A DNA stretch of 42,222 bases from Chloroflexota bacterium (GCA_031361415.1 JANMCU010000038.1:1-42222), one strand, 5' to 3'; shown: positions 26,262-42,084, counted from the stretch's first letter. Translations and numbers: made by a program. Notes: a model not told the origin generated them from the letters alone.

Positions 26262-27832
26262 CCTAGATCTGTTTCGGCCAGGATCTCGGCGATCCGCGCC
26301 CGGGTGGTCGGCATGTCGAAACGCAACAGGGCGTCCGGTTCGATCGGCCGCTCCTCGACCTTGCCGCCCCGGCGGAGATAGAGGACGGGATAGATCGCAC
26401 CGCTGCCGTCCGCCTCGAGCGTGATCGCGAGCGCATCCGTGTTGCCATCGTCGCCGACCCCGTCGACGAACGCGGCCAGCGGGACCACCCCTTCCTCGCG
26501 CGGCCCGATCGCCGGATCGATCGAGATGACCTTGGCCAGGTAGGCGCGCTGATGCCACAGCTCGGGTGCCGTCGCGAGCTCGTTCAGGATCGCCTCGGCC
26601 AGGCCGGCGGCCGGCAGCGTTCGACGCTCAGGGGCCCCGTCCTGGTCGCCGTGGGTCCGGGCGATATGGCCGGCGAGGACCCGGGCGTTGTAGCGCGCCC
26701 CGTGAACCGCGCCGGAGTTGGCCGGCAGGCCGTGCTTCTTCAACCCGGCCGAGCCCTGCCCGATCGTGCCCGCGAAGAAGATCCCGGGAACGGTCGCGCT
26801 CTCCCAGTACGGGGTCTGGGCCGGGAGCTTTGCCTGCCCGAACGTCGACACGCCGAGCGCCGGCAAATCCAGCAGCGGCGTGACGAACCCGGTCGCGGAG
26901 ATCACCTCGTCGACGTCGATCGCCATCTCCTCGCCGCCATCCGACGGCCGGACGGTCACGACGAATGGCGCCTCGGAGCCGCTCTCGGCGCCGCGCACGA
27001 TCCCCCCGATCGAGGCATCGAGGACGGCCACGCCGCCGCCCAGGACGTGATCCTCGAACGGCTGGACGTAGCGCGCCCGAACGCCGACGAGCGACTTCGT
27101 GTTGACCGACAGCTTGGCGGGCGACGGTGAGCAGAGGACGATCCGACGAGCCCACGGCAGGAGGCCGGTCGCGAGCTCGAAGCCGGAGTTCTGCTTGCCC
27201 ATGATGAACACCCGTCGACCGGCGTACGTCTCGGCCGGCCGCGTGTCTGCGTAGTGGGCCGCGAGCTCGATCCCGGGCGTCGATGGCGCATACGGCTCGG
27301 CGACACCGACGGCGAACACAAGCGCCTTCGCGTGGTACTCGCCATCGGTCGTCTCGAGGACGAAGCGCCCGCCGTCGGGACCGTCCTCGTGACGCGTCGC
27401 CGTCCAGCGGCAGTCGTGCCGGATCCGCGTGCCCGTCCGCGCGACGAACGTCGCGAGGTTCAGCTCCATCTCCGGCCGCGATGGGAAGTACGACGAGCCG
27501 TCCATCAGGTCCGGCATGATCGCGCGCTCGTCCGGGCCATCGCCGAGCAGCGAGTTCCAGTCGTAGCGCTCGTAGGCCGGCGAGTCGCGTTCGACCGGGG
27601 CAAACGGCTTGGTCCACGACAGCAATCGCTGAAAGAACGGCCAGCGCCGGAACATGCCACCGGGCGCCGGGTCGGCCGAGATGAGCGCGTGCGGCACGCC
27701 GCGTCGACCCAGTGAGTACGAGACCTGGATTGCGCCTGCGCCGCTGCCGACGACGACGACCGGGTACTCGCCGGGCGGGAACGGCCGAGGATCGGCCGCG
27801 TCGTTGCCGACGGGCTGGCTCAGCTCCGCCAC
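26258..27832 (-). CDS. FAD/NAD(P)-binding oxidoreductase (flavin-monooxygenase / pyridine nucleotide-disulfide oxidoreductase-like) with a ~120-aa C-terminal extension
   Basis: First dinucleotide motif VVVVGSGAGAIQVSYSL...DPAPGG and second motif RRVFIMGKQNSGFELA; ATGF and FFAGT near the end of the flavin domain. GTG at 27832 is the only sensible in-frame start. It overlaps the upstream cNMP-binding gene by 13 nt, and no strong SD is seen. Confidence 0.75.
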   Translation of the reverse strand: MAELSQPVGNDAADPRPFPPGEYPVVVVGSGAGAIQVSYSLGRRGVPHALISADPAPGGMFRRWPFFQRLLSWTKPFAPVERDSPAYERYDWNSLLGDGPDERAIMPDLMDGSSYFPSRPEMELNLATFVARTGTRIRHDCRWTATRHEDGPDGGRFVLETTDGEYHAKALVFAVGVAEPYAPSTPGIELAAHYADTRPAETYAGRRVFIMGKQNSGFELATGLLPWARRIVLCSPSPAKLSVNTKSLVGVRARYVQPFEDHVLGGGVAVLDASIGGIVRGAESGSEAPFVVTVRPSDGGEEMAIDVDEVISATGFVTPLLDLPALGVSTFGQAKLPAQTPYWESATVPGIFFAGTIGQGSAGLKKHGLPANSGAVHGARYNARVLAGHIARTHGDQDGAPERRTLPAAGLAEAILNELATAPELWHQRAYLAKVISIDPAIGPREEGVVPLAAFVDGVGDDGNTDALAITLEADGSGAIYPVLYLRRGGKVEERPIEPDALLRFDMPTTRARIAEILAETDLG

Positions 27833-28242
27833 CGGTTCGCGTTCCGCAGACGGCGCGCCTGCGCCTGGAGCATCCGGAACATCAGGGGCGGGTTGTCGAG
27901 CAGGACGCCCTTGACCGCCGGGCCTGCCAGGACGAGCGTCCGAAGCGGTCGCGAGGCGACGATGTCCGCACCGGGCGACTCGCCGAGGAGGATCGAGACC
28001 TCGCCGAAGAAGTCGCCCCGGGCGAGGGTCGCCCGCTGCATCCCGTCGATGACGACCTCGGCCTCGCCGTCGAGGATGATGGAGAACGCCGATCCGGACA
28101 GCCCCTGGCGAAGGACCCGGGCGCCGTCGGGGAAGACCTCCTCCTCGAACATGTGGGCGAGCCGCTCGAGCTGTGGCGTGGTCAGGTCGGCGAACAGCGC
28201 GAAGCCGGCGATCTGGTCGACGATCTCGTCGCGGGTGGCCAT
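27820..28242 (-). CDS. Stand-alone cyclic-nucleotide-binding (CNB/CAP effector) domain protein, non-canonical phosphate-binding cassette
   Basis: 140 aa: FALFADLTTPQLERLA...VLRQGLSGSAFSIILDGEAEV...GDFFGEVSILLGESPGADIVA. This is a full beta-barrel CNB domain with no output domain. The PBC reads PGAD where PR(S/T)A is expected. Confidence 0.8.
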   Translation of the reverse strand: MATRDEIVDQIAGFALFADLTTPQLERLAHMFEEEVFPDGARVLRQGLSGSAFSIILDGEAEVVIDGMQRATLARGDFFGEVSILLGESPGADIVASRPLRTLVLAGPAVKGVLLDNPPLMFRMLQAQARRLRNANRWRS

Positions 28243-28297
28243 CGGGCGTGTGTCCTCTCTTCCGATCCCCTCCGGCGCATTCTGCCACCTCTACCCC

Positions 28298-28312
28298 GCG
28301 ACCGACGGTCGC
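28298..28312. promoter_or_regulatory. 15-bp palindrome in the divergent control region of the two CNB genes
   Basis: GCGACCG-A-CGGTCGC (perfect 7-bp arms). It lies in the 145-bp gap between the divergent starts at 28242 and 28388. TTGACG at 28334-28339 and CAGCAT 18 nt later could be the plus-strand promoter. Confidence 0.4.
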
Positions 28313-28387
28313 TGTCGGTGTCCCGCGCCGCGGTTGACGCGAGCCTGATCGAACGCGCAGCATCAACTCCATTCCAGAGGAGGATCC

Positions 28388-28816
28388 GTGACGCTCACCC
28401 AGGACCGTCGGACCGAGCTGCTCGGCGGCTGCCCGCTCTTCGCCGGGGTCGACCGGAACGACCTCGGCGCGATCGGCGAACAGGCGATCGAGGTCGACTT
28501 TCCGGCCGACCACGTGATTGCCCGCCAGGGCGAGATCGGGACCGGGCTGTTCGTCGTGATCGACGGGGCGGTCCGCGTCATCCGCGACGGCACGGAGCTC
28601 GCCCGCCTCGGCGCCGGCGACTTCTTCGGCGAGATGTCGGTGATCGATGGGCTGCCGCGCGTCGCCCAGGTCGTGACGACCGCGCCGACCCGCTGCCTCG
28701 CCCTGGCCAGCTGGGAGTTCGAGCGTCTCGTCCTTGAGCACCCGACGATCGGGCTCGCGATCCTGCGCGGTCTGTCCGCCCGACTGCGGGCGAAGACCGA
28801 TCCCCCGCTCCACTGA
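28388..28816 (+). CDS. Stand-alone cyclic-nucleotide-binding (CNB) domain protein
   Basis: 142 aa: CPLFAGVDRNDLGAIG...IARQGEIGTGLFVVIDGAVRV...GDFFGEMSVIDGLPRVAQVV (the PBC retains Arg). GTG start with AGAGGAGGA 4 nt upstream. No output domain. Confidence 0.85.
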   Translation: MTLTQDRRTELLGGCPLFAGVDRNDLGAIGEQAIEVDFPADHVIARQGEIGTGLFVVIDGAVRVIRDGTELARLGAGDFFGEMSVIDGLPRVAQVVTTAPTRCLALASWEFERLVLEHPTIGLAILRGLSARLRAKTDPPLH

Positions 28817-28847
28817 TCCGGGACGGCCGCGGAACCGACCCGACCCG

Positions 28848-31589
28848 ATGAGCAGCCTTCCGACTGGAACCGTCGCCTTCGTCTTCACCGACATCGAGGG
28901 CTCGACCCACCTCGCTCAGACGCTGCCCGAGGACCGCTGGTCGGCGACGCTCGCCCGGCACCGCGAGCTCGTCCGGGCGGCCGTGGCGGCCCATGGCGGA
29001 GTCGAGGTCTCGACCGAGGGCGACGGCTTCTTCCTCGTCTTCGCCCGGACCGCCGACGCGATCGCGGCCACCGTCGATGCCCAGCGGGCCCTGTCCGGCG
29101 AGCCCTGGCCGGCGGACGCCGTCGTCCGCGTCCGGATGGGCATCCACACCGGCGACGGCCGGCTCGACGCGGACGGCAGCTACATTGGGGCGGACGTCCA
29201 TCGCGCGGCCCGGGTGTCCGCGGCGGGTCACGGCGGGCAGGTGCTCCTGTCAGAGACGACCTCGGGCCTCGTCGCCGACGAGTTGCCGGCCGGCGTCGGG
29301 CTGCGCGGCCTCGGCGAGCATCGCCTCAAGGATCTCCGGCCCGAGCGGATCTGCCAGCTCGTGATCGAGGGCGAGCGGGTCGACTTCCCACCGATCCGCT
29401 CGCTCGATCGCCGGCCGAACAACCTGCCGACCCAGCTCACGAGCTTCGTCGGCCGCGAGAAGCCCCTGGCCGAGGCCGAGGCCCTGCTCCAGACGACGCG
29501 GCTGCTGACCCTGACGGGGCCCGGCGGCACCGGCAAAACCCGACTGTCGCTCCAGCTCGCGGCCAACGTCGCCGAGCGGTTCCCGGACGGGATCTGGTTC
29601 ATTGCCCTCGAACCGGTCCGCGATCCGGGACTCGTCGCTGGCACGATCCTGACGACCCTCGGTCTCGTCGAGGCGGGCGGGCGCTCGGCCCGCGACGTTC
29701 TGGTCGACTGGCTGGCCAATCGACAGATCCTGCTCGTCCTCGACAACTTCGAGCAGGTCATCGAAGGCGCCCCGGTCGTGGCCGACCTCCTCCGGAACGC
29801 GCCCCGCGTGTCGGTCATCGTCACGAGCCGGGCGCCGCTCCGGGTCAGCGGGGAGCAGGAGTACCCGGTGCCCGGCCTGCCGGCTCCGCGCGACGTCCTC
29901 GCCCTGTCCGATCTCGAGAAGATGAACCTGCCGGCGCAGGACAGGCGGCTGGATGCGGCGGCCGCGACCCAGTTCGAGGCTGTTCGCCTGTTCATCGCCC
30001 GCGCCATCGGGGTCCGGCCGGACTTCAAGGTGACGAACGAGAACGCACCCGCGGTCGCGGGCATCGCCGCCCGTCTCCACGGGATGCCGCTCGCGATCGA
30101 GCTGGCAGCGGCGCGAGTCAAGCTCCTCCCGCCCGACGCCATCCTCGAACGTCTCGAGCACCAGCTCGGCATGCTCGCGTCAGGTTCGCGCGACCTGCCC
30201 GAGCGCCAGCAGACCCTGCGCGGGGCGATCGCCTGGAGCCACGACCTGCTCGATGACGGTCAGCGCCGGCTGCTCGCCCGATTGTCGGTCTTCGTCGGCG
30301 GCTGCGAGCTCGACAGCGCGGAGGCCATCTGCGGTCCCGCCTCCGAGCTGGCCGGGCTCGACGTCCTCGACGGCCTGCTGGCCCTCGCCGACCAGAGCCT
30401 CGTCCGGGCCGAGGAGATCGACGGCGAGACGCGCTTCCGGATGCTCGACACGATCCGCGAGTTCGCGGCCGAGCAGCTCACGGCGTCCGGCCAGCGCGAC
30501 GACATCCACCGCCGCCACAGCGACACGTTCGTCGTCCTGGCCGAGTCGCTCACGCCGCTCCTGTCGGGCGACGACCAGCGCCGCTGGCTCGGTCGCCTGG
30601 AGCGCGACCACGACAACATCCGGGCCGTCCTCGATCGGGCCGAGGCGGCCGGCGAGGCCGAGACCGCGATCCGGCTCGGCTTCGCGATGTGGCGCTACTG
30701 GCAGAAGCGCGGCCACCTCGCCGAGGCCCGCCGCCGGCTCCAGGCGATGGCCGACGCGTCATGGTCGCGCGCCGATCCGCGGCTCCGGGCCCGGCTGATG
30801 GAGGCTCTCGGGGGCGTGTGCTGGTGGCAGGCCGACATCCCGGCGATGGGCGTCGCCTATGGAGAGGCGCTCGAGCTCTGGCAGGCGATCGGCGACAAGC
30901 GCGAGATCGCCAATGCCCTGTACAACGACTCGTTCCGGTTTGCCGTGAGCGAGACGGCCGGCGATCGAGATCCCGATCGGATCGGCTTCAACCAGATGGT
31001 TCGGGCCCGGGATCTTGCGACCGAGGTCGGCGACGAGCGTGGCCGGGCGAATGCGTTCTGGGGGATCGGCAACTGGCAGTGGTTCCACGCCGCGGAGGAC
31101 CACGGCATCGCCCATTTCGCTGAGGCGCTCGGCGTGTTCCGGGGCCTCGGCGATCGGACGATGGAGGCCTGGTCGCACCACATGCTCGGGACCGCCCAGA
31201 TCCGCCTCGGGCCGATGGACGAGTCACGACGCAACGTGGAGGCGGCGCTCCGGCTCTTCCACCGCTTCGGCGACGTCGCGGGGATCACGCTGAGCCTCGA
31301 CGACTTCGCGTCGCTTGCGATCGCCACCGGCGACCTGCCACGCGCGGCGCGTCTATGGGGCGCGGCCCGCGCCCTGTCGGCGGCAGGTGGCGTCGGGCTG
31401 GCCGATTTCGTCGACACCCAGTTCGAGTTCCACGGCCGCCCGAATGCCCGCATCGCGATCGACCCGGCCGAGTTGGAGAAATACGCCGTCGAAGGTCGGG
31501 CCATGACCCTTGACGAAAGCGTCGCCTACGCGCTCGAGACGGATATCGACTCGTTGGCGCCGCACGATCACGCGGGCGCCACCCGATGA
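28848..31589 (+). CDS. Class III nucleotidyl cyclase domain fused to a STAND (AAA/NB-ARC-like) NTPase and C-terminal TPR repeats
   Basis: Cyclase: GTVAFVFTDIEGST, STEGDGFFLVF, RVRMGIHTGD, GADVHRAARV. NTPase: Walker A GPGGTGKTRL, Walker B LLVLDNFEQV, VIVTSR, then the winged-helix block GMPLAIELAAARV. About 350 aa of TPR-like helical repeats follow (WRYWQKRGHLAEARR..., NALYNDSF..., FWGIGNWQW...). No LuxR/HTH output domain. Confidence 0.85.
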   Translation: MSSLPTGTVAFVFTDIEGSTHLAQTLPEDRWSATLARHRELVRAAVAAHGGVEVSTEGDGFFLVFARTADAIAATVDAQRALSGEPWPADAVVRVRMGIHTGDGRLDADGSYIGADVHRAARVSAAGHGGQVLLSETTSGLVADELPAGVGLRGLGEHRLKDLRPERICQLVIEGERVDFPPIRSLDRRPNNLPTQLTSFVGREKPLAEAEALLQTTRLLTLTGPGGTGKTRLSLQLAANVAERFPDGIWFIALEPVRDPGLVAGTILTTLGLVEAGGRSARDVLVDWLANRQILLVLDNFEQVIEGAPVVADLLRNAPRVSVIVTSRAPLRVSGEQEYPVPGLPAPRDVLALSDLEKMNLPAQDRRLDAAAATQFEAVRLFIARAIGVRPDFKVTNENAPAVAGIAARLHGMPLAIELAAARVKLLPPDAILERLEHQLGMLASGSRDLPERQQTLRGAIAWSHDLLDDGQRRLLARLSVFVGGCELDSAEAICGPASELAGLDVLDGLLALADQSLVRAEEIDGETRFRMLDTIREFAAEQLTASGQRDDIHRRHSDTFVVLAESLTPLLSGDDQRRWLGRLERDHDNIRAVLDRAEAAGEAETAIRLGFAMWRYWQKRGHLAEARRRLQAMADASWSRADPRLRARLMEALGGVCWWQADIPAMGVAYGEALELWQAIGDKREIANALYNDSFRFAVSETAGDRDPDRIGFNQMVRARDLATEVGDERGRANAFWGIGNWQWFHAAEDHGIAHFAEALGVFRGLGDRTMEAWSHHMLGTAQIRLGPMDESRRNVEAALRLFHRFGDVAGITLSLDDFASLAIATGDLPRAARLWGAARALSAAGGVGLADFVDTQFEFHGRPNARIAIDPAELEKYAVEGRAMTLDESVAYALETDIDSLAPHDHAGATR

Positions 31590-34311: not shown

Positions 34312-34623
34312 CTACATTCCCTTGCCGCGGCGGTCGATCGACCGGAGCGAGTCGTTCATTCGGAAGAGGACCACGACGAACTCGAGGATCACTCGCCAGT
34401 AGAGGTTGCCGAAGAACAGGAGCAACAGCCCGTAGATGGCCGCCCCACCTCCGCCCGCCGCCATGGCGCCGAGCGCGGCGATGGTGATCAACACCGCGCC
34501 GATGACATACACGATGGTGATGATCGTCGGAGTGATCAGGTAGCGGAACGAGATGAATTCCCCGAAGTTGAAGCCTTCGGCAGGAGCGGGGCTGTGTGGC
34601 GGGATCGGGACCTGGGAATCCAT
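34312..34623 (-). CDS. DUF4282-like small membrane protein
   Basis: 103 aa: FNFGEFISFRYLITPTIITIVYVIGAVLITIAAL... followed by a second TM and RVILEFVVVLFRM. The family assignment is from memory. Confidence 0.6.
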   Translation of the reverse strand: MDSQVPIPPHSPAPAEGFNFGEFISFRYLITPTIITIVYVIGAVLITIAALGAMAAGGGGAAIYGLLLLFFGNLYWRVILEFVVVLFRMNDSLRSIDRRGKGM

Positions 34624-34738
34624 GTCGATCACCTCGTGGCCAGCGGGCCATCGATCATCGACAGCAACCGTGCATCGATCATGACGACGCGCGCGTTCGA
34701 TTCCGTCAGACCGAGACCCATCCGTTCGTCGTTCTGCG

Positions 34739-35821
34739 TCAGCCGCCCATCGCGAACATCTCGAGCCGCGGCAGGCTCGACGACGTGGCCTCGGTCCGCT
34801 CCTCGGAATAGCGGTCATCGCGAACCCGCCAGACAGCGGCCACGGCGTCGCGCAGTGCGGCTTCGCCTGCGACGACCGCGACAAGCTCCGGATCCCGGAG
34901 GATCGCCCGGAGGTCGTGGCCCTCGCCGGTGAACAGACACGTGTAGAAGCGTCCCTCGGCGGACAGCCGGGCACGGGTGCAGTCGCCGCAGAACGGCTTC
35001 GTCACCGACGCGATCACGCCCACCTCGCCGACGCCGTCGCGATAGCGCCAGCGGGTCGCGACCTCGCCCCGGTAGCGCGGCGGCTCGGCGACCAGCGGCA
35101 TCTCGGCGTCGACCAGCCCGACCAGCTCGTCCGCTCCGACGACCTCGTCCATCCGCCAGCCGTTCGTGTGCCCGACATCCATGAACTCGATGAACCGAAG
35201 GGTCACACCGGCGTCACGCGCCCAGCGGGCCATCGGCAGGACGCTCGCCTCGTTGATCCCACGCCGGACGACCATGTTGACCTTGATCGGCCCGAGGCCC
35301 GCCTCCTGGGCCGCGCTGATCCCGTCGAGGACCTTGGCGACCGGGAAGTCGACCCCGTTCATGGCGCTGAACACCGCGTCGTCGAGCGAGTCGAGGCTGA
35401 TCGTGACCCGGCCGAGGCCGGCGTCGGCGAGCGGACCGGCAAGCTTGCGCAGGGCCGAGCCGTTCGTCGTCAGGGTGAGGTCGAGCGGGCTTCCATCGGT
35501 CCGTCGGAGGGCCGCCAGCATCGCGACCAGGACCGGCAGGTCGCGCCGGACGAGCGGCTCGCCGCCGGTCAGCCGGAGCTTCTCGACCCCGAGGGAGACG
35601 AACACGCGGGCAACCCGCTCGATCTCCTCGAATGTCAGGACCTCGGAGCGCGGCAGGAACGCGTAGTCGGCTCCGAAGATCTCCTTCGGCATGCAATACG
35701 TGCACCGGAAGTTGCAGCGATCGGTGACCGAGATCCGCAGGTCGTGGAGCGGCCGGCCGAGGAGATCGGCCAGCGCGCTGCCCAACGGAGCCGCAAGGTC
35801 GGAGGCCGGGATCGTGTCCAT
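34739..35821 (-). CDS. moaA: GTP 3',8-cyclase MoaA (radical SAM, molybdenum cofactor biosynthesis)
   Basis: LRISVTDRCNFRCTYCMP (CxxxCxxC cluster), LRLTGGEPLVR, TNG, and C-terminal FCGDCTRARLSAEGRFYTCLF (second cluster). The start is at MDTIPASD (M47 of the 406-aa ORF). Confidence 0.9.
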   Translation of the reverse strand: MDTIPASDLAAPLGSALADLLGRPLHDLRISVTDRCNFRCTYCMPKEIFGADYAFLPRSEVLTFEEIERVARVFVSLGVEKLRLTGGEPLVRRDLPVLVAMLAALRRTDGSPLDLTLTTNGSALRKLAGPLADAGLGRVTISLDSLDDAVFSAMNGVDFPVAKVLDGISAAQEAGLGPIKVNMVVRRGINEASVLPMARWARDAGVTLRFIEFMDVGHTNGWRMDEVVGADELVGLVDAEMPLVAEPPRYRGEVATRWRYRDGVGEVGVIASVTKPFCGDCTRARLSAEGRFYTCLFTGEGHDLRAILRDPELVAVVAGEAALRDAVAAVWRVRDDRYSEERTEATSSSLPRLEMFAMGG

Positions 35822-36071
35822 CGGCGTGATCCTACCGCGGCCCGCCCGAACGCCCGCGCGAGGAATCCTGAGCCGGTGCGCGGCTGTCGCCAAAAACCGG
35901 TTGCCGCCGGTCAACGGTCGAGCCGCGGCGACCATGGTCCGCTCCCCCGCCGGTACCACCGGCTTGCCCCTCTGGTACCTCTAGCGGACTCCATCACACC
36001 CATCCCCGTCGACCACACTGCGGACACGCCCTGGATCCCCTGACAGCGCGCACCTGGAGAGGCAACGACGC

Positions 36072-37652
36072 ATGGCCCAGACCGACGCCAAAGCCGGTTT
36101 CCGGCTCCCCTGGAGCTCCGACCGCCAGTCGAGCGAGACGCTCGAGGGTGATTCGGCGACCGACTCGCAGGCTGCCGCCACTGGCGGCTGGCCGAGCGAG
36201 GACAGCGCGCAGTTCAACGGAACCGCCGCGGTTGCCCCCGACGCAGCCACCACCGTTGATCCGTTGACGAGCCCGATGGTCGACCCGGAGCCGGCCCCCG
36301 CGCCGAGCGCTCCGACCCCCCCGCCGGCCGGTCGCAAGCCGACCAGGTTCATGGCCGACCTCACCAAGGCGATGCAGGCCGCGGCCGAGGACGCCCGATC
36401 GCGGGCGATCGGCCAGCTCCAGGCCGACGCGAAGACCCACGTCGAAACGATCCACGGTCGTTCGTCAACCGAGGCAGCCGGCCTGCGCCGAGCCGCCGAC
36501 GACGATGTCGCCGCCGTCCGCGAGTGGTCGAAGGCCGAGATCGCCCGGATCCGCGAAGAGACCGAGTCGAGGATCACCGACCGCAAGGCCCGCCTCGAGA
36601 GCGAGATCGACGAGCACGCCGCCCTGATCGAGCGCGAGATCGACGCCGTCCAGAAGACGGTCGCCGCGTTCGAGGATGAGATGGCCGCGTTCTTCGAGCG
36701 CCTGCTCGGCGAAGAGGACCCGAGCCGCTTCGCCACCATGGCCGAGAACCTGCCCGAGGCTCCCGCGTTCGAGGGCATCCTGGCCAGCCCGGCTGTCGAC
36801 CCGACGAACGACGAGGCCGACGCGGAGACCAGCACCGCCGCTGCCGCGGACGCGGTTCTCGAGACCGTCGCCGACGACGCGACCGACGACACGACCGAGA
36901 CCGAGACCGAAGCCGAAGCCGCGGCCGAGACCGGCGAGACCACCGAGACCACCGACCCCGAGTCGCCGACCGGCGAGCTCGAGGCCATGACCGGCAGCGC
37001 AAGCGACGCGCACAGCGCGTCGTCCGTCGGATCGACCGACGGTAGCGAGGGTGGCGACGGCGAGCTCGACCGCGAGGCCGCATTCGCCGCGATCCAGGCC
37101 GCCGCCGAGGCCGCCGCGAGCGCCGAGGTCGCGGCCGACGCCGCCGCCCGCGCCGAGGCCGTCGCCGACGTCGCGATCGAGATCATGGGTAACCACGAGG
37201 ACGAGGGCGAGGCTGATCCGCGCTTCGCGGCCCTCGGCCTGTCGCCCGATTACGACGCCGCAGAGGCCGAGGCGCTGGCCGCGGCCGACTCGTCGGACGA
37301 TGAGATCCCCGAGATCGGCGACGACGCGCTCGCCGCCCGCCTGGCGGGTCTCGTCCCCGGCAAGAACAAGGGCAACCCGGCCGACACGACCACGACCCAG
37401 GTGGTCGTGGTGGGGCTCGTGAGCGTCGCCAGCATCGCAAGCTTCAAGCGCCATCTTGGCCGCGTGACCGGCGTTCAGTCGGTCGGCGTCTCGTCCGGTC
37501 CTGACGGTGAGTTCATCTTCGCGGTCAACCACGGCGGGGATGTCGTTCTGCGCGACGCGATCCCGTCCCTGCCGAGCTTCCAGGCCCGCGTCACCGGCTC
37601 GTCCGACGGCGTGGTCCATGTGACCGCGCACGATCCAGAGGCGGACGCGTAA
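36072..37652 (+). CDS. Hyper-acidic protein: N-terminal GFRLPW peptide, coiled-coil segment, long D/E/A/T-rich disordered region, small C-terminal alpha/beta domain; function unknown
   Basis: 526 aa. MAQTDAKAGFRLPWSSDR at the N-terminus. Heptad-like AEDARSRAIGQLQADAKTHVE...EIARIREETESRITDRKARLESEIDEHAALIEREIDAVQKTVAAFEDEMAAFFERLL. The acidic tract TETETEAEAAAETGETTETTD is encoded by imperfect GAGACC/GAAGCC hexamer repeats (about 36881-36957). C-terminal QVVVVGLVSVASIASFKRHLGRVTGVQSVGVSSGPDGEFIFAVNH...VVHVTAHD. Confidence 0.7.
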   Translation: MAQTDAKAGFRLPWSSDRQSSETLEGDSATDSQAAATGGWPSEDSAQFNGTAAVAPDAATTVDPLTSPMVDPEPAPAPSAPTPPPAGRKPTRFMADLTKAMQAAAEDARSRAIGQLQADAKTHVETIHGRSSTEAAGLRRAADDDVAAVREWSKAEIARIREETESRITDRKARLESEIDEHAALIEREIDAVQKTVAAFEDEMAAFFERLLGEEDPSRFATMAENLPEAPAFEGILASPAVDPTNDEADAETSTAAAADAVLETVADDATDDTTETETEAEAAAETGETTETTDPESPTGELEAMTGSASDAHSASSVGSTDGSEGGDGELDREAAFAAIQAAAEAAASAEVAADAAARAEAVADVAIEIMGNHEDEGEADPRFAALGLSPDYDAAEAEALAAADSSDDEIPEIGDDALAARLAGLVPGKNKGNPADTTTTQVVVVGLVSVASIASFKRHLGRVTGVQSVGVSSGPDGEFIFAVNHGGDVVLRDAIPSLPSFQARVTGSSDGVVHVTAHDPEADA

Positions 37653-37713
37653 CCGGCCGGCCTGGCCCACACGCGTCCACCTCACCAACGCCGAGACCCG
37701 GGGAACCAAGATC

Positions 37714-38958
37714 GTGGCCCGACCAGCGATCGTCATCGCGCTTCCGCCGGCCGAACGCGGGCTTGTCATCGACGAGCTCCGGGGAGCCGGCTTCGAGGCG
37801 ATTGCCATCGGGACGCCCGATGAGCTCGACGCCCTCCTGACCTCGCGCCACGACATCGCGATCGCGATCCTCGACGGCGAGACCGACTTCGACACGTCGC
37901 TCGAGTATTACGGGCTGCTCCACGAAGGCGGCCGGACCATCCCCGCCTTGATGGTCATGTCGCCGCAGGCGATCGACAAGATGTTCAACCCGTCGTCGGC
38001 TGACGAGTTCTTCAGCCGGCCGTATACCGCCGACTCGATCCGCTGGCGGGTCGAGGCGATGTGCATCCGCTCGGTCACGGTCGACGACGGCTCCGGGCCG
38101 ATCATCCAGGGCGGCTCGATGGAGATGGGCGACTGGTCGCGTCGGGCGACCGTGATCGCGATCTTCAACCCGAAGGGCGGCGTCGGAAAGACGACGATCG
38201 CGACCAACCTCGCCTCTGCCTTCCAGCTTCACCAGGGCCAGAAGGTGCTCCTGATCGACGCCGACACGGTCACCGGCCACGTCACGACATCGCTCGGGCT
38301 CGAGCAGGTCCGGACCGTCGCCGACAGCTGGCGCGAGCAGATGGACGACGGGATCACCGAGTCGCTGACTGCGCTCGCCGCGCCCCATCCGTCGGGGTTG
38401 TCGGTCGTGTCGCTCACGTCAACGCCGCTGAACACCGAGATCCTCGATCCGGTCCGGATCGCCGACGCGATCACCAGCTCGCGCCCGACCTATGACTTCA
38501 TCGTCGTCGACCTCCATCCGTCGTACAGCGCCCTCAACCGGGCCATCTTCCAGAAGGCCGACAAGATCCTTGTCCCGGTCACGCCCGACGTCCCCGCCCT
38601 GCGCGCCGCGGTCCAGCTTCGCGAGGTCGCGATCGAGCTCAACGTCCAGGATCGGCTGGCCCTGGTCGTCAACCGGGCGAACAGCGGTGTCTCGGTCGCG
38701 GACATGGAGAAGACGGTCGGGATGCCGGCCCTCGCCTTGATCCGGTCCGGCGGCCTGCTCTTCGTCCGGGCCGCGAACGAGGGCCGGACCGTTATCGAGA
38801 TGTATCCGAACGAACGGATCACCGAGGACTTCGATGCCCTCGCCGAACGGCTCGTCCGGACGTTCCAGACAGTGGTCAAGCCGGCACCGGTCGCCCCGCC
38901 GAAGACGGGCGGTTTCCGCCTTCCGTTCGGTCGCTCGAAGGAACCCGCCCGGGCCTGA
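37714..38958 (+). CDS. Pseudo-receiver domain fused to a ParA/MinD-type P-loop ATPase (TadZ/CpaE-like architecture)
   Basis: The N-terminal REC-like fold lacks the acidic pocket (AIVIALPP in place of the DD pair). Deviant Walker A FNPKGGVGKTTIATNLA, Walker A' LLIDADTVTG and Walker B FIVVDLHP. The C-terminal tail is PPKTGGFRLPFGRSKEP. No other tad/cpa pilus genes are in the window. Confidence 0.8.
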   Translation: MARPAIVIALPPAERGLVIDELRGAGFEAIAIGTPDELDALLTSRHDIAIAILDGETDFDTSLEYYGLLHEGGRTIPALMVMSPQAIDKMFNPSSADEFFSRPYTADSIRWRVEAMCIRSVTVDDGSGPIIQGGSMEMGDWSRRATVIAIFNPKGGVGKTTIATNLASAFQLHQGQKVLLIDADTVTGHVTTSLGLEQVRTVADSWREQMDDGITESLTALAAPHPSGLSVVSLTSTPLNTEILDPVRIADAITSSRPTYDFIVVDLHPSYSALNRAIFQKADKILVPVTPDVPALRAAVQLREVAIELNVQDRLALVVNRANSGVSVADMEKTVGMPALALIRSGGLLFVRAANEGRTVIEMYPNERITEDFDALAERLVRTFQTVVKPAPVAPPKTGGFRLPFGRSKEPARA

Positions 38959-39183
38959 CGCGCCGGCGCGGCTCGCCGCGCGCCCCGTCGACCAACTTGA
39001 TTCCCACGGGCCAGGTGTCAGTCCCTCCCGGCCACCGGAAATGACGAGCGCGTCGAACCGTGCCATCGCCTCGCGGTCAGGGGGAACCAACGCTCGGGCG
39101 GCATGTCGTCCAACGCCGAAGCTGTCGAGCTCGACCCGCTCGGCCGGCAGGTCCAGGAGGTGGCTCGAGCTCCTCCTCCGGGG

Positions 39184-39423
39184 TTGAGTCGCCACGCGAC
39201 TCAAGTTGGCCGGCAGTGAGCGCGGTGTCGCCGGAATTGCGACCGACCGCCTCGTGCTGTTGGCGATTGGGAGTCGCCTGACGACTCGCGGCCGGGCTTC
39301 CACCCCTATGTCCTGGCCCGGTGCGCATGTCGCCGGCGTGCCGACCGGTCGTTCGAGTCGTGTCGTGACTCACCATCGGGATCCATCGATCCTCGTGATC
39401 TGACTCAGCTCACCCGGCGAGTC
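39184..39423. repeat. Three related GAGTCG...CGACTC hairpins spaced ~84 bp, plus further GANTC palindromes, in a 504-bp convergent intergenic region
   Basis: TTGAGTCGC-cac-GCGACTCAA (39184-39204), GAGTCG-cctga-CGACTC (39271-39287), GAGTC-gtgtcgt-GACTC (39355-39371), CTGACTCAG (39400-39408) and GAGTC (39419-39423). The flanks of units 1 and 2 also resemble each other (GTGTCGCCGGAATTGCGACCGACCG vs ATGTCGCCGGCGTGCCGACCGGTCG). Confidence 0.55.
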
Positions 39424-39462
39424 CGGGCCAACTTCGTGAGCCGAGCTTGCCCGGCATGTCGG

Positions 39463-40113
39463 CTATGACCTGTCTTGCCACGTAATTCCGCCCAGCGGTG
39501 CCCCGGGCAGCTTCTGCGCCTTGAGCCCGGTCCGCTTGTCGACCTGCTCGACACCCCGCAGGTAGAAGCGGTTCACGAGGACCGTGTCGACGTCGGGATC
39601 GCCCACCCGCACCTCGCCGAACGTTGCCACCGCCTCGACGACCGGGACGAACATCTCGGTCGACCGATCGAGCAGGCGATCCGGCTCCGATCCCGGATGG
39701 AGGTAGACCGTACCGACGATCCGGAACGGCGGAGCCTCGAGGGCAACGTCGTAGGCGACCTTGTGGACGCGATGGGCGGCTCGTTCGGTGTCGGTCAGCT
39801 CCGGCAGCGAGCCCTCGCCCGCGAGGACCAGGATCAGGTCGTATGGATCGACGCTCTTGAGCCCGGGTGCGTCGACGAGCGGAGCAGAACCGTCGATCGG
39901 GGCCCATTGGACGTCGTGGATCGCGACTGACTCGCGCTTGTTCAATGCGTCCGACAGGCGGCCGATGACATCCATCCGGCCGACGAGTCGCCACTCCTCG
40001 GTCACCCCGTCGAATGCGACGCCGGTCCGGACGGCACGGAGCCCGCTGCTCGGCGCCTCGACCGGCGCGGTGCCGGCCGCGGCCTTCTTTCGACGGAGGA
40101 AGTTCAGGGGCAC
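39463..40113 (-). CDS. Hypothetical protein built from two tandem copies of a ~75-aa module
   Basis: 216 aa. WRLVGRMDVIGRLSDALNKRESVAIHDVQWAPIDG... aligns by eye with FRIVGTVYLHPGSEPDRLLDRSTEMFVPVVEAVATFG.... It starts 6 nt downstream of the acs stop on the same strand, with coding-like third-position bias. Confidence 0.6.
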   Translation of the reverse strand: MPLNFLRRKKAAAGTAPVEAPSSGLRAVRTGVAFDGVTEEWRLVGRMDVIGRLSDALNKRESVAIHDVQWAPIDGSAPLVDAPGLKSVDPYDLILVLAGEGSLPELTDTERAAHRVHKVAYDVALEAPPFRIVGTVYLHPGSEPDRLLDRSTEMFVPVVEAVATFGEVRVGDPDVDTVLVNRFYLRGVEQVDKRTGLKAQKLPGAPLGGITWQDRS

Positions 40114-40119
40114 GTCCGG

Positions 40120-42084
40120 TCAGTCCTCGGACTTGAAGCTGTTCTCGCGAATGGTCTCGACGACCGCCGCGTCGGCCAGGGTCGTGGTGTCGCCGAGCGA
40201 CCGGCCCTGGGCAATGTCGCGGAGGAGGCGGCGCATGATCTTGCCGCTCCGCGTCTTCGGCAGGTCCGGGGTGAACATCAGGGCCTTCGGCTTGGCGATC
40301 GGGCTGATCTTGGTCGCGACATGGCGGCGCAGCTCGTCACCGAGCTCCGGGGTCGGCTCGAACCCCAGCCGGAGGATGACGAAGGCGTTGATCGCCTCGC
40401 CGGTCACCGGATCGGGGCCGCCCACGACGGCGGCCTCGGCCACCGCCGGATGCGACACGAGCGCGCTCTCGATCTCGGTGGTCGACAGGCGGTGGCCCGA
40501 CACGTTCATCACGTCGTCGACCCGGCCGAGCAGCCAGTAGTAGCCGTCGTCGTCGCGCTTCGCTCCGTCGCCGGCGAAGTACATGCCCGGGAACCGGCTC
40601 CAGTACGTCTGCCGGTAGCGCTCGGGGTCGCCGTAGATCCCGCGCAGCATCGCCGGCCACGGGCGCTTCAGGACGAGATAGCCGCCGCCTCCGTTCGGGA
40701 CCGATTTCCCGTCGCCGTCGACGATGTCGGCCTCGATCCCCGGAAAAGGGAACGTGGCGCTGCCAGGCTTGGTGGTCGTCACCCCGGGCAGCGGCGTGAT
40801 CAGGATCTGGCCGGTCTCCGTCTGCCACCACGTGTCGACGACCGGCGTCGTGCCGCCACCGATGTGCTCGCGGTACCAGAGCCAGGCTTCGGGGTTGATC
40901 GGCTCGCCGACGGAGCCGAGGACGCGCAGCGACGACAGGTCGTGGCCGGCCGGATGCTGGGCGCCCTGCTTCATGAACGCCCGGATCGCGGTCGGGGCGC
41001 AGTACAGGATCGTGACCTTGTACTCCTCGATGATCGACCACCAGCGATCCCAGCCCGGCGTGTCGGGCGAACCCTCTTACAGGATCCCGGTCGTCGCGTT
41101 GGCGAGCGGCCCATAGACGATGTAGCTATGGCCGGTCACCCAGCCGATGTCCGCCGCGCACCAGTACACGTCGTCGGGCTTGATGTCGAAGATCTGCCTG
41201 TGGCTGTAGGACGTGCCGACGAGGTAGCCGGCCGTCGTGTGGGTGATCCCCTTCGGCTTGGCGGTGGAGCCCGAGGTGTAGAGCAGGTAGAGCATGTGCT
41301 CGCTGTCGAGCGGGACCGGCGGGCACTCCGCGTCCTGGCGCTCGACGATGTCGTGCCACCAGACGTCGCGGCCCTCGACCAACATCGTGTCGGGCGCGGC
41401 ATCGCCGAGGCGGCGAACGACCAGGACGTGCTCGACGGTGGGGCTCGACGCGACGGCCTCGTCGACCGCGGCCTTGAGCGGCATCGCCTTGCCGCGGCGA
41501 TAGCTGCCGTCGGCGGTGATGATGATCTTCGCCTCCGCGTCGTTGATCCGGCCCGACAGCGCCTCGGCCGAGAAGCCGGCGAAGACGACCGTATGCGGCG
41601 CACCGATCCGGGCGCAGGCGAGCATCGCGATCGGCAGCTCCGGGATCATCGGCATGTAGATCGCGACCCGGTCGCCCACCCCGACGCCGAGCTCGCGCAG
41701 GGCGTTGGCCGCCTTCGACACCTCGAGGAGCAGGTCGGCGTAGGTGATCGTGCGCGTCTCGCCGGGCTCGCCGATCCAGTGGTAGGCGACCTTGTTGCCG
41801 AGGCCGTTCGCGACGTGCCGGTCGACGCAGTTCTCGCTCATGTTCAGCTTGCCGCCGACGAACCACTTCGCGAACGGCAGGTCCCATTCGAGCGTCGTCG
41901 TGAACGGCTCGTTCCAGGTCACGGTTTCGCGGGCGATCTTCGCCCAGAATGCCTCCGGATCGTGGGCCGCTTCCTCGTACAGGGCGGCCTGAGCGTTGGC
42001 CTGGGCCGTAAAAGCCGGGTCAGGCGGGAACACCCGCTCCTCGAGCAGCAGGTTCTCGATCTCGGGACGCTGGTCGACGCTCAC
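40120..42084 (-). pseudogene. acs: Acetyl-CoA synthetase (AMP-forming) interrupted by a single in-frame TAA
   Basis: ORFs 41077..42084 (N-terminal 335 aa: [42 protein letters not shown]) and 40120..40974 (C-terminal part: [40 protein letters not shown]) are in the same frame. The only break is TAA at 41077-41079. Translation resumes immediately as [34 protein letters not shown]. Confidence 0.85.

Follow-up and report, generated by a model that had tools for sequence, protein, structure and literature searches.

The window analysed here is a stretch of 42,222 nucleotides (nt) from a Chloroflexota bacterium (GCA_031361415.1 JANMCU010000038.1:1-42222). Its G+C content is about 70%, all coordinates count from its first letter, and the source names of its homologues place it in Candidatus Limnocylindrales / Chloroflexota. 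We describe a pair of adjacent plus-strand genes in this window, which code for a hyper-acidic protein (the partner) and for an ATPase of the ParA/MinD superfamily with a predicted TadZ/CpaE-type architecture. The initial annotation of this DNA had described the two open reading frames (ORFs), with a 526-amino-acid (aa) partner 61 nt upstream of the ATPase, and the ORF listing returned the pair just as described, on the plus strand. The pair consists of the following elements.

36072..37652, plus strand: partner gene, ATG start, 526 aa (ORF listing)
37653..37713, plus strand: spacer between the partner and ATPase genes, 61 nt (−4 to 98 nt at orthologous loci)
37714..38958, plus strand: ATPase gene, GTG start, 414 aa, TadZ/CpaE-type architecture (ORF listing, Pfam, NCBIfam, PDB sequence search, AlphaFold2 (AF2), Foldseek)

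The partner began with KAGFRLPWSSDR / MAQTDAKAGFRLPWSSDRQ and contained 104 Asp and Glu residues against 36 Lys and Arg residues, giving a net charge of about −68. Basic residues were nearly absent from its two long linkers. Its layout was obtained from alignments of 15 and then 46 orthologues together with the AF2 model, for which the predicted local distance difference test (pLDDT) is given where it bears on a domain.

36072-36125, plus strand: N-terminal peptide, residues 1-18, consensus M-A-x-T-[DE]-x-[KR]-x-G-F-R-L-P-W
36096..36113, plus strand: GFRLPW core of the peptide, codons of G9 to W14 (conservation over 46 species)
36126..36335, plus strand: linker 1, residues 19-88, hypervariable, acidic and Pro/Ala/Thr-rich, with 10 acidic residues and 1 basic residue, predicted disordered
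36186-36203, plus strand: semi-conserved mini-motif G-W-P-[ST]-[DE]-[DE] inside linker 1, residues ~39-44
36336..36770, plus strand: helical domain, residues 89-233, conserved, containing the invariant REWSKAEIARIR block
36771..37061, plus strand: linker 2, residues 234-330, hypervariable and hyper-acidic, with 27 acidic and 0 basic residues, predicted disordered
37062..37352, plus strand: Ala-rich helix, residues 331-373, followed by the short segments DPRFAALGLSPDYDAAEAEA and EIPEIGDDALAARLAGL, conserved, the whole region reaching residue 427
37386..37649, plus strand: C-terminal ferredoxin-like domain, residues 439-526, AF2 pLDDT 70-86, strongly conserved

In the AF2 model, one long helix spanned residues 92-213 with pLDDT above 90 and is presumed to be a coiled coil or scaffold, and the C-terminal domain (residues 439-520) showed a beta-alpha-beta-beta-(alpha)-beta-beta fold. 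Alignment and model agree with the coiled-coil block, the disordered acidic stretch and the compact C-terminal alpha/beta domain that the initial annotation had assigned to this protein. The Trp-Pro mini-motif GWP[ST][DE] of linker 1 was present in most of the orthologues with 60% identity or more.

GFRLPW was the most conserved patch of the partner and lies next to a hypervariable linker. Over the 46 species (36-75% identity), G9, F10, R11, P13 and W14 were conserved in at least 98% and L12 in at least 90%; K/R7 was also conserved, and R11 was invariant. Among the 150 best cluster representatives, 106 carried the exact GFRLPW, most of the remainder being N-terminally truncated. Rare variants were GFKLPW, GFRFPW, GLRLPW, SLRLPW, AFRLPW, GFHLPW and GFRPPW. 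A conserved hexapeptide beside a hypervariable linker is what marks a specific short linear motif carried by a tether. Conservation of the motif was among the points on which the initial annotation had staked its proposal, and on the side of the partner it was retained in orthologues down to 36% identity.

A profile search of 1.84 billion cluster representatives returned at least 1239 clusters (50% identity) at E ≤ 0.001, and by this number the partner family is large, with more than 1000 sequence clusters, and unannotated. The protein is labelled hypothetical in all sources and belongs to no Pfam or NCBIfam family. Searches of Pfam, NCBIfam and PDB sequences with the whole protein and with each domain gave compositional noise only (Apolipoprotein, ClfB; PDB E = 0.83); for the helical domain, the weak Apolipoprotein-like match was the sole Pfam signal. 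No ParB, helix-turn-helix or other Pfam/NCBIfam domain was detected in the partner. The Foldseek search gave weak generic ferredoxin-like HMA/ACT matches only (E ≥ 0.02) and no match to a SepF, DivIVA or ParB-like fold.

The ATPase was divided into an N-terminal receiver-like domain and a C-terminal P-loop core.

37714..38076, plus strand: pseudo-receiver (atypical receiver) domain, residues 1-121 (AF2 (beta-alpha)5 fold; orthologue alignment)
38149..38868, plus strand: ParA/MinD P-loop core, residues 146 to ~385 (Pfam, PDB sequence matches, invariant residues)
38173-38193, plus strand: deviant Walker A KGGVGKT, K154-T160, within NPKGGVGKTT

Pfam matched residues 146-325 to AAA_31 with 81.6 bits (cut-off 27), and CbiA, ParA and MipZ were likewise above their cut-offs. 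The PDB sequence search gave 3ea0, a ParA-family ATPase of Chlorobium, as the best match, and Soj and MinD were found too. The NPKGGVGKTT stretch with its signature lysine, D182-x-D184 and D266 (the Walker B Asp) were invariant in 52 orthologues (44-85% identity), and because of this invariance the ATPase should bind and hydrolyse ATP and is predicted to be catalytically intact. The best NCBIfam models were ParA_partition, Ssd/CpaE_hom_Actino and MinD, all of which scored far under their curated or equivalog cut-offs. ParA_partition (NF041546) gave 87.2 bits against a cut-off of 180, and MinD (TIGR01968) gave 64 bits against 212.9. The second-best model, TIGR03815 (actinobacterial CpaE/Ssd), gave 80.7 bits against 154.45 (E = 1e-22), with the match limited to profile positions 108-309, the ATPase core only. 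By its motif, Switch aspartates, profile matches and fold, the protein is a member of the ParA/MinD superfamily.

The AF2 model of the ATPase (pLDDT 63, shallow alignment) showed a (beta-alpha)5 fold at residues 5-121, which a disordered linker joins to the ParA core. Foldseek ranked the two-domain TadZ of E. rectale (3fkq) first, with 405 columns aligned across both domains, followed by 3ea0, ParA/Soj, MinD, McdA and FlhG; more than 250 matches had E ≤ 0.001. Pfam found no Response_reg (PF00072) match in the ATPase even at E = 5. Among the 52 orthologues, an invariant L10-P11 stood in place of the acidic DD pair of receivers, and R102-P103 replaced K-P, with R102 invariant. The phospho-site Asp (D54) was also invariant, position 83 was Ser in at least 70%, and helix alpha5 (RWRVEAMxIR) was invariant. 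The modelled layout is an atypical receiver joined to a ParA/MinD core, as in TadZ/CpaE. The initial annotation had proposed this layout, with a receiver lacking the acidic pocket, and the receiver fold in the AF2 model and the 3fkq match bear it out.

The pair forms a self-contained plus-strand unit because moaA and orf216/acs flank it on the opposite strand. The upstream neighbour is moaA (34739-35959). Downstream of the ATPase, a 504-nt non-coding stretch is followed by a convergent ORF of 216 aa (orf216) and by the gene for acetyl-CoA synthetase (acs). One translation signal was read from the sequence.

36056..36062, plus strand: ribosome-binding site GGAGAGG, 9 nt before the partner ATG

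This site sits in the 112-nt divergent intergenic region that separates the partner gene from moaA (minus strand, ending at 35959). Scans for consensus sites near the pair, which are uninformative for this phylum, gave no sigma-70-like promoter and no terminator. The exact window sequence was found in DNA metagenomes only. In RNA runs, short contigs of relatives (85-90% alike) covered parts of both genes, and many of them stacked over the Walker A region of the ATPase; none crossed the spacer.

Conservation of the pair was followed in a scan of one genome per species, which gave 67 loci, nearly all labelled Limnocylindrales, Chloroflexota or Chloroflexia. The ATPase gene lay immediately downstream of the partner gene on the same strand in 63 of the 67 loci, and of the four others three are cut short by the contig. 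Counting the loci that reach far enough downstream, the pair was adjacent in 63 of 64 species-level genomes (metagenome-assembled genomes of Limnocylindria/Chloroflexota), which answers in the positive the question of synteny elsewhere that the initial annotation had raised. The two genes overlapped by 4 nt in loci L042 and L044. The pair appears from this gene order to be a bicistronic module conserved across the class Limnocylindria. A divergent arrangement was observed in locus L054 (5989-9393), where two tandem partner paralogues both lacked the N-terminal peptide and the acidic linkers. One paralogue (213 aa) consisted of the helical domain only, and the other (309 aa) of the helical and C-terminal domains. 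The ATPase that comes after them (474 aa) had a (GGQI)n repeat inserted in its inter-domain linker and an atypical tail, GFIGTFSHISNTSVRAS.

Genes of a Tad pilus were absent from these surroundings. About 30 ORFs, which make up most of the 42-kb window, were scanned with Pfam, and no tad/cpa genes (T2SSE/TadA, TadB/C, Flp, secretin) were detected among them; the scans gave ABC transporters, SpoIID, LD-carboxypeptidase, PepX, an aminotransferase, cNMP-binding (cyclic nucleotide-binding) proteins, a cyclase, ThyX, PNP and MoaA. No tadA/cpaF, tadB/C, flp or secretin gene stood beside the 67 related loci, whose flanks kept to one order of PNP, moaA, the pair, orf216, acs. The inspection covered 42 kb of the genome of the window and about 13 kb per relative. 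Within this scope, the statement of the initial annotation that no tad/cpa secretion genes lie nearby holds for the window and for the flanks of all 67 loci.

The ATPase ended with GGFRLPFGRSKEPARA / PPKTGGFRLPFGRSKEPARA, a stretch that resembles the N-terminal peptide of the partner.

38896..38955, plus strand: basic C-terminal tail, ATPase residues 395-414, net charge +4; the rest of the protein is acidic (net −12)
38911-38928, plus strand: GFRLPF core of the tail, residues 400-405

The loose pattern [GA][FWY]R[LIVMF]P?[FWY] had two matches in the six-frame translation of the window, both at these termini. A 5-mer shared between the first 25 residues of the partner and the last 25 of the ATPase occurred in 23 of 20000 shuffles of both proteins (about 0.001). 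The codons of the two GFRLP stretches (ggt ttc cgg ctc ccc vs ggt ttc cgc ctt ccg) differed at 3 of 5 positions, so the likeness is at the protein level and no piece of DNA is repeated; a recent DNA duplication as the source of the motif was ruled out by the same difference. The initial annotation had reported GFRLP plus an aromatic residue at opposite termini of the two proteins, and this match is real and the sole such motif pair in the window. It had also presented GFRLP[WF] as a motif common to both proteins, which holds in the window but does not extend to the ATPase family. In the tails of its 52 orthologues, GFRLPF was not conserved, and F405 (at least 70%) and R407 (at least 98%) were the sole residues to persist; what the tails keep is their composition and an F-x-R core, within a conserved pattern hydrophobic-x-L-F-x-R. 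Every one of 51 orthologue tails was basic (net +2 to +6), in a protein that is otherwise acidic. The extreme C-terminus of the ATPase, A-R-[AV]-COOH (residues 412-414, 38947-38955), was more persistent than GFRLP and was kept in deep-branching orthologues with a changed GFRL-like core (…PQPARA, …AAVRA, …GVRA).

The tail forms are given below by their place on a neighbour-joining tree built from the ATPases.

Deepest branches: LLKNLFGRK; FLGNLLSRPQ; S[LM]RLFGR
Crown group: GFRLF[GAS]R, PFGLFNR or [LV]RGLFGR
Subclade of the window: GFRLPFGR, with one Pro inserted

The tail drifted stepwise on this tree, LKNLFGRK -> MRLFGR -> GFRLFGR -> GFRLPFGR, and exact identity with the partner peptide is a late state, seen in the window's own subclade. 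A wider template, [KR]-x-x-hydrophobic/aromatic-x-L-(P)-aromatic, recurred in both peptides in many lineages. A 4-mer or longer was common to partner peptide and tail in 10 of 39 pairs; the L035 pair shared the 7-mer AKAGFRL, and L011 and L055 had AKPGFRLPW in the partner vs AKPAFGLFN in the tail. The deep branches kept the partner GFRLPW with unlike tails, therefore the match is not required by the system, even if the resemblance extends beyond the window. MinD attaches to the membrane by an amphipathic sequence at its C-terminus once dimerised (PMC8155659), and the membrane-targeting helix of B. subtilis MinD is KGMMAKIKSFFGVRS (PMC13537761). Because the older tail forms LKNLFGRK, MRLFGRP and PFGLFNRAK resemble this helix, a membrane anchor is at least as likely a role for the tail as an autoinhibitory mimic. 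In the AF2 monomer of the ATPase the tail was not docked, with low confidence in this part of the model.

Our preferred reading, which we hold tentatively, is that the partner stands for a new family of partner proteins, serving a TadZ-like ATPase that is independent of Tad and associates with the membrane, and that the N-terminal peptide of the partner is the element that contacts the ATPase. The basic and hydrophobic tail of the ATPase would act as in MinD and engage the membrane upon ATP-dependent dimerisation. The product of the upstream gene would be the cognate scaffold or adaptor, presenting GFRLPW with its invariant Arg on a long, disordered, acidic tether. Its long helix could serve self-association, and the ferredoxin-like domain could serve cargo binding or oligomerisation. 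The N-terminal peptide may contact the ATPase by docking on the dimer or on the pseudo-receiver, where the alpha5 face is conserved, and it may stimulate ATP hydrolysis as in ParB, MinE, ParG and PomX, with R11 of GFRLPW as the candidate essential basic residue. Together, the two proteins might position or localise something at the membrane, for example a pole, the division site or an envelope complex. Activators of ParA/MinD ATPases (ParB, MinE, ParG, PomX) work via short N-terminal peptides with essential basic residues, and the 22-residue N-terminal peptide of PomX alone activates PomZ, with two basic residues being essential (PMC7993993). The partner has the architecture of this class, as it combines a conserved N-terminal peptide that includes basic residues (R11, K/R7) with a gene that adjoins the ATPase gene in 63 of 64 loci. 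We infer the membrane binding of the tail, the contact of the peptide with the ATPase and the positioning function, while the gene pair, the domain architectures, their conservation and the synteny are direct results. The initial annotation had proposed an undescribed positioning module; the architecture, the partner motif and the synteny speak for this proposal, and the competitive or autoinhibitory regulation that it had suggested for the tail gained no support and is a less probable alternative, the tail motif not being family-wide.

Several results weigh against the preferred reading. Synteny across the class took in the entire stretch from thyX through PNP, moaA, the pair and orf216 to acs, so adjacency alone is weak evidence of functional coupling. 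A subclade, represented by independent assemblies (L048, L068, L071), had the partner and no ATPase at the locus. In these loci a convergent orf216 homologue followed directly after the partner, whose N-terminus was still MDTTEQRAGFRLPW with GFRLPW intact. L069 and L070, slightly more distant from this subclade, do have the ATPase. The ATPase-less subclade suggests that the ATPase moved elsewhere or that the peptide has another or additional target.

L048 5998-7383; L068 4001-5311; L071 3575-4945; L073 274-1701: partner loci without the ATPase

Two further ATPase-less contigs (L073, P0406) carried the altered motifs GLRLPW and GSGLPW. They speak neither for nor against a decay of the motif where the ATPase is absent, as the similar variants GLRLPW, SLRLPW, AFRLPW and GFHLPW also occurred with the ATPase present. 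With 3 basic residues among its 18, the N-terminal peptide is less basic than the classical activator peptides. The tail in the window contains a proline and showed a helical hydrophobic moment of 0.33, around the 37th percentile of the protein's own 11-mers, and 24 of 51 orthologue tails were in the top 5% of their own protein on this measure, which is a poor discriminator, since genuine MinD tails reach only about 0.4. Both AF2 models were modest (pLDDT ~63), with low confidence in the tail and peptide regions, and the interaction of the two proteins is a proposal.

The likeness of the two peptides can be read in other ways. Both might be membrane anchors, the two peripheral proteins meeting on the membrane surface and making their protein contact elsewhere, which we consider unlikely. 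The two peptides do pair Phe, Trp and Leu with flanking Lys and Arg at the extreme termini, next to flexible linkers, both resemble the MinD tail KGMMAKIKSFFGVRS, and the persistence of the partner motif in the subclade without an adjacent ATPase fits an ATPase-independent role. Targeting sequences normally drift, however, and the near-invariance of GFRLPW across more than 100 clusters (50% identity) points to stereospecific recognition. The peptide also has just three hydrophobic residues and a central Pro, and anionic lipids would repel a partner whose net charge is about −68. It is rather improbable that the likeness is one of peptide mimicry, the idea of the initial annotation, with the tail and the partner peptide binding the same pocket, in the ATPase or in the pseudo-receiver, and the tail acting as a pseudo-partner, for autoinhibition or hand-over, that the partner displaces. 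The switch that this would provide, with the tail as a built-in decoy of GFRLPW and the partner turning the ATPase on by displacing it, seems to us to be just as improbable. Its attractions are the template common to both peptides in many orthologue pairs, the stepwise approach of the tail to an invariant partner peptide with the Pro insertion last, a likeness that is seen in the proteins despite synonymous codon differences, and the low shuffle probability; moreover L054, which is without the N-terminal peptide, also has an atypical tail. Against it, the tail is much less constrained than the partner peptide, deep-branching orthologues combine GFRLPW with the tails LLKNLFGRK or FLGNLLSRPQ, variants of the two peptides show no covariation, and no docked tail was seen in the low-confidence AF2 monomer. 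The template describes ordinary MinD membrane tails equally well. To our knowledge, autoinhibition by a pseudo-partner has not been described for ParA/MinD ATPases.

The remaining two alternatives question the pairing itself. If the ATPase were a true TadZ/CpaE, in charge of placing a Tad pilus whose genes lie elsewhere in the genome, the acidic protein would be its polar landmark, comparable to PodJ for CpaE or RomR for TadZA. TadZ is the best structural match across both domains, and the atypical receiver of TadZ has been proposed to drive polar localisation via protein contacts, while CpaE relies on the landmark PodJ (bioRxiv 10.64898/2026.07.08.737194). The inspection of 42 kb here and about 13 kb of each relative leaves space for a pilus locus. 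On the other side, TadZ is described as found in Tad systems (bioRxiv 10.64898/2026.07.08.737194), yet no tad gene was present in the window or in the flanks of the 67 loci, and the CpaE/Ssd NCBIfam model reached 80.7 bits against a cut-off of 154 on the ATPase core only; we regard this alternative as quite improbable. Least of all do we believe in coincidence, by which a frozen gene order made the two genes neighbours and the GFRLP match arose by chance as a basic and hydrophobic tail drifted. The syntenic thyX-to-acs block would allow it, as would the confinement of the exact match to the window's subclade, the sharing of a 5-mer somewhere in 120 of 300 whole-protein shuffles, and the subclade that kept the partner without an ATPase at the locus. 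It is made very improbable by the tight spacing or overlap of two same-strand genes between opposite-strand flanks, by the rarity of a terminus-to-terminus 5-mer in shuffles (about 0.001), by the wider template common to tail and peptide in many lineages, and by the rule that ParA/MinD ATPases almost always act with an adjacent partner (PMC7993993).

Some further observations concern the rest of the window. Between the convergent ATPase and orf216 genes, the gap of 504 nt (38959-39462) contained no high-GC3 ORF, Rfam match, terminator-like site or conservation in related loci that would indicate a small gene or RNA; in related loci the gap was about 100 to 800 nt. The minus-strand orf216 (39463-40113, 216 aa) gave a faint DUF6812 match only and starts with the basic peptide MPLNFLRRKK. 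It lay convergently downstream of the pair in 53 of the 67 loci and stays in place in the ATPase-less subclade. The acs gene (40120-42084) has an in-frame TAA stop at 41077-41079 (minus-strand codon, …GIL*EG…), where orthologues have Tyr (…MYEG…). Contigs of three public metagenome runs had G and not T at 41077, restoring TAC (Tyr), and because they read TAC the stop is either a strain-specific nonsense change or an assembly error. Between PNP and moaA, a DUF4282-domain ORF was observed in the window (34312-34974, minus strand). In a comparison of L068-L072, the counterpart of this ORF in several related loci was annotated as an RDD domain (PF06271), and tblastn of the DUF4282 ORF gave no match in the 67 loci. 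Small divergent genes for proteins with a cNMP-binding domain were located at 27820-28290 (minus strand) and 28349-28816 (plus strand), adjoined by a 970-aa protein with an N-terminal adenylate/guanylate cyclase domain; the region 27820-31589 might be a cluster for cyclic-nucleotide signalling.

Among the structures that ParA/MinD ATPases put in place are chromosomes, division rings, flagella, pili, chemoreceptor arrays and carboxysomes, and each newly found type of partner has revealed a new cargo or a new regulation of the ATPase. Receiver-bearing TadZ-type ATPases are regarded as specific to Tad pilus systems. Here, a TadZ architecture seems to be fixed outside pilus loci across a class of abundant uncultured soil and freshwater Chloroflexota and tied to an unannotated family, and the near-invariant six-residue peptide offers a precise experimental handle. 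If what the module places is a polar structure or the division site, the cell organisation of a little-known lineage would become accessible; if the tail were to mimic the partner peptide, this would be a new regulatory principle for the ParA/MinD family. Our literature search turned up no description of this module and no work on how Limnocylindria organise their cells.

The ATPase is closest in layout to TadZ/CpaE (3fkq), with which it shares an N-terminal atypical receiver without the acidic pair, a deviant Walker A ATPase and the two-domain arrangement; in both, the receiver is thought to act via protein contacts. Unlike TadZ/CpaE, the window ATPase has no tad/cpa genes here or at the 67 loci and scores below the CpaE/Ssd cut-off, is paired with a dedicated acidic coiled-coil protein, and carries a basic C-terminal tail. 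Ssd (Rv3660c, 'septum site-determining protein', TIGR03815) gave the second-best NCBIfam match to the ATPase core, but the score is about half of the family cut-off and concerns the core only. Ssd sits in a tad-like locus, and the window ATPase gene does not. MinD has in common with the ATPase the deviant Walker A motif and a short basic and hydrophobic C-terminal tail (orthologues LKNLFGRK, GFRLFGRAK), and its system includes a partner with an N-terminal peptide, which is functional in MinE. In contrast, MinD is without a receiver domain, the window gene has no adjacent minC or minE (moaA and orf216 adjoin the pair), MinE and the partner are unrelated proteins, and the window tail contains proline and is weakly amphipathic.

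For the partner, the nearest architecture is that of PomX, in which a conserved N-terminal peptide (about 20 residues) is likewise joined to a long stretch without structure and to a scaffold domain formed by a coiled coil (PMC7993993). No sequence homology was detected, the likeness being one of architecture taken from the description, without alignment to PomX itself. PomZ binds DNA and has neither a receiver nor a membrane tail, and the Pom system has two partners vs one here; the window partner is moreover hyper-acidic and ends in a ferredoxin-like domain. PopZ and HubP/FimV are acidic, largely disordered hubs with short terminal motifs and an oligomerisation domain, which hold ParA/MinD-family ATPases. 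The partner resembles them as they are described, with no homology detected. A membrane anchor and a LysM domain set HubP and FimV apart from it, and PopZ is a far smaller protein. By these comparisons, the partner falls outside the described families and, in its likely function, most resembles PomX-type activators or acidic hub proteins. What is new here is probably a ParA/MinD positioning module in which a new partner family is joined to an orphan TadZ-like ATPase.

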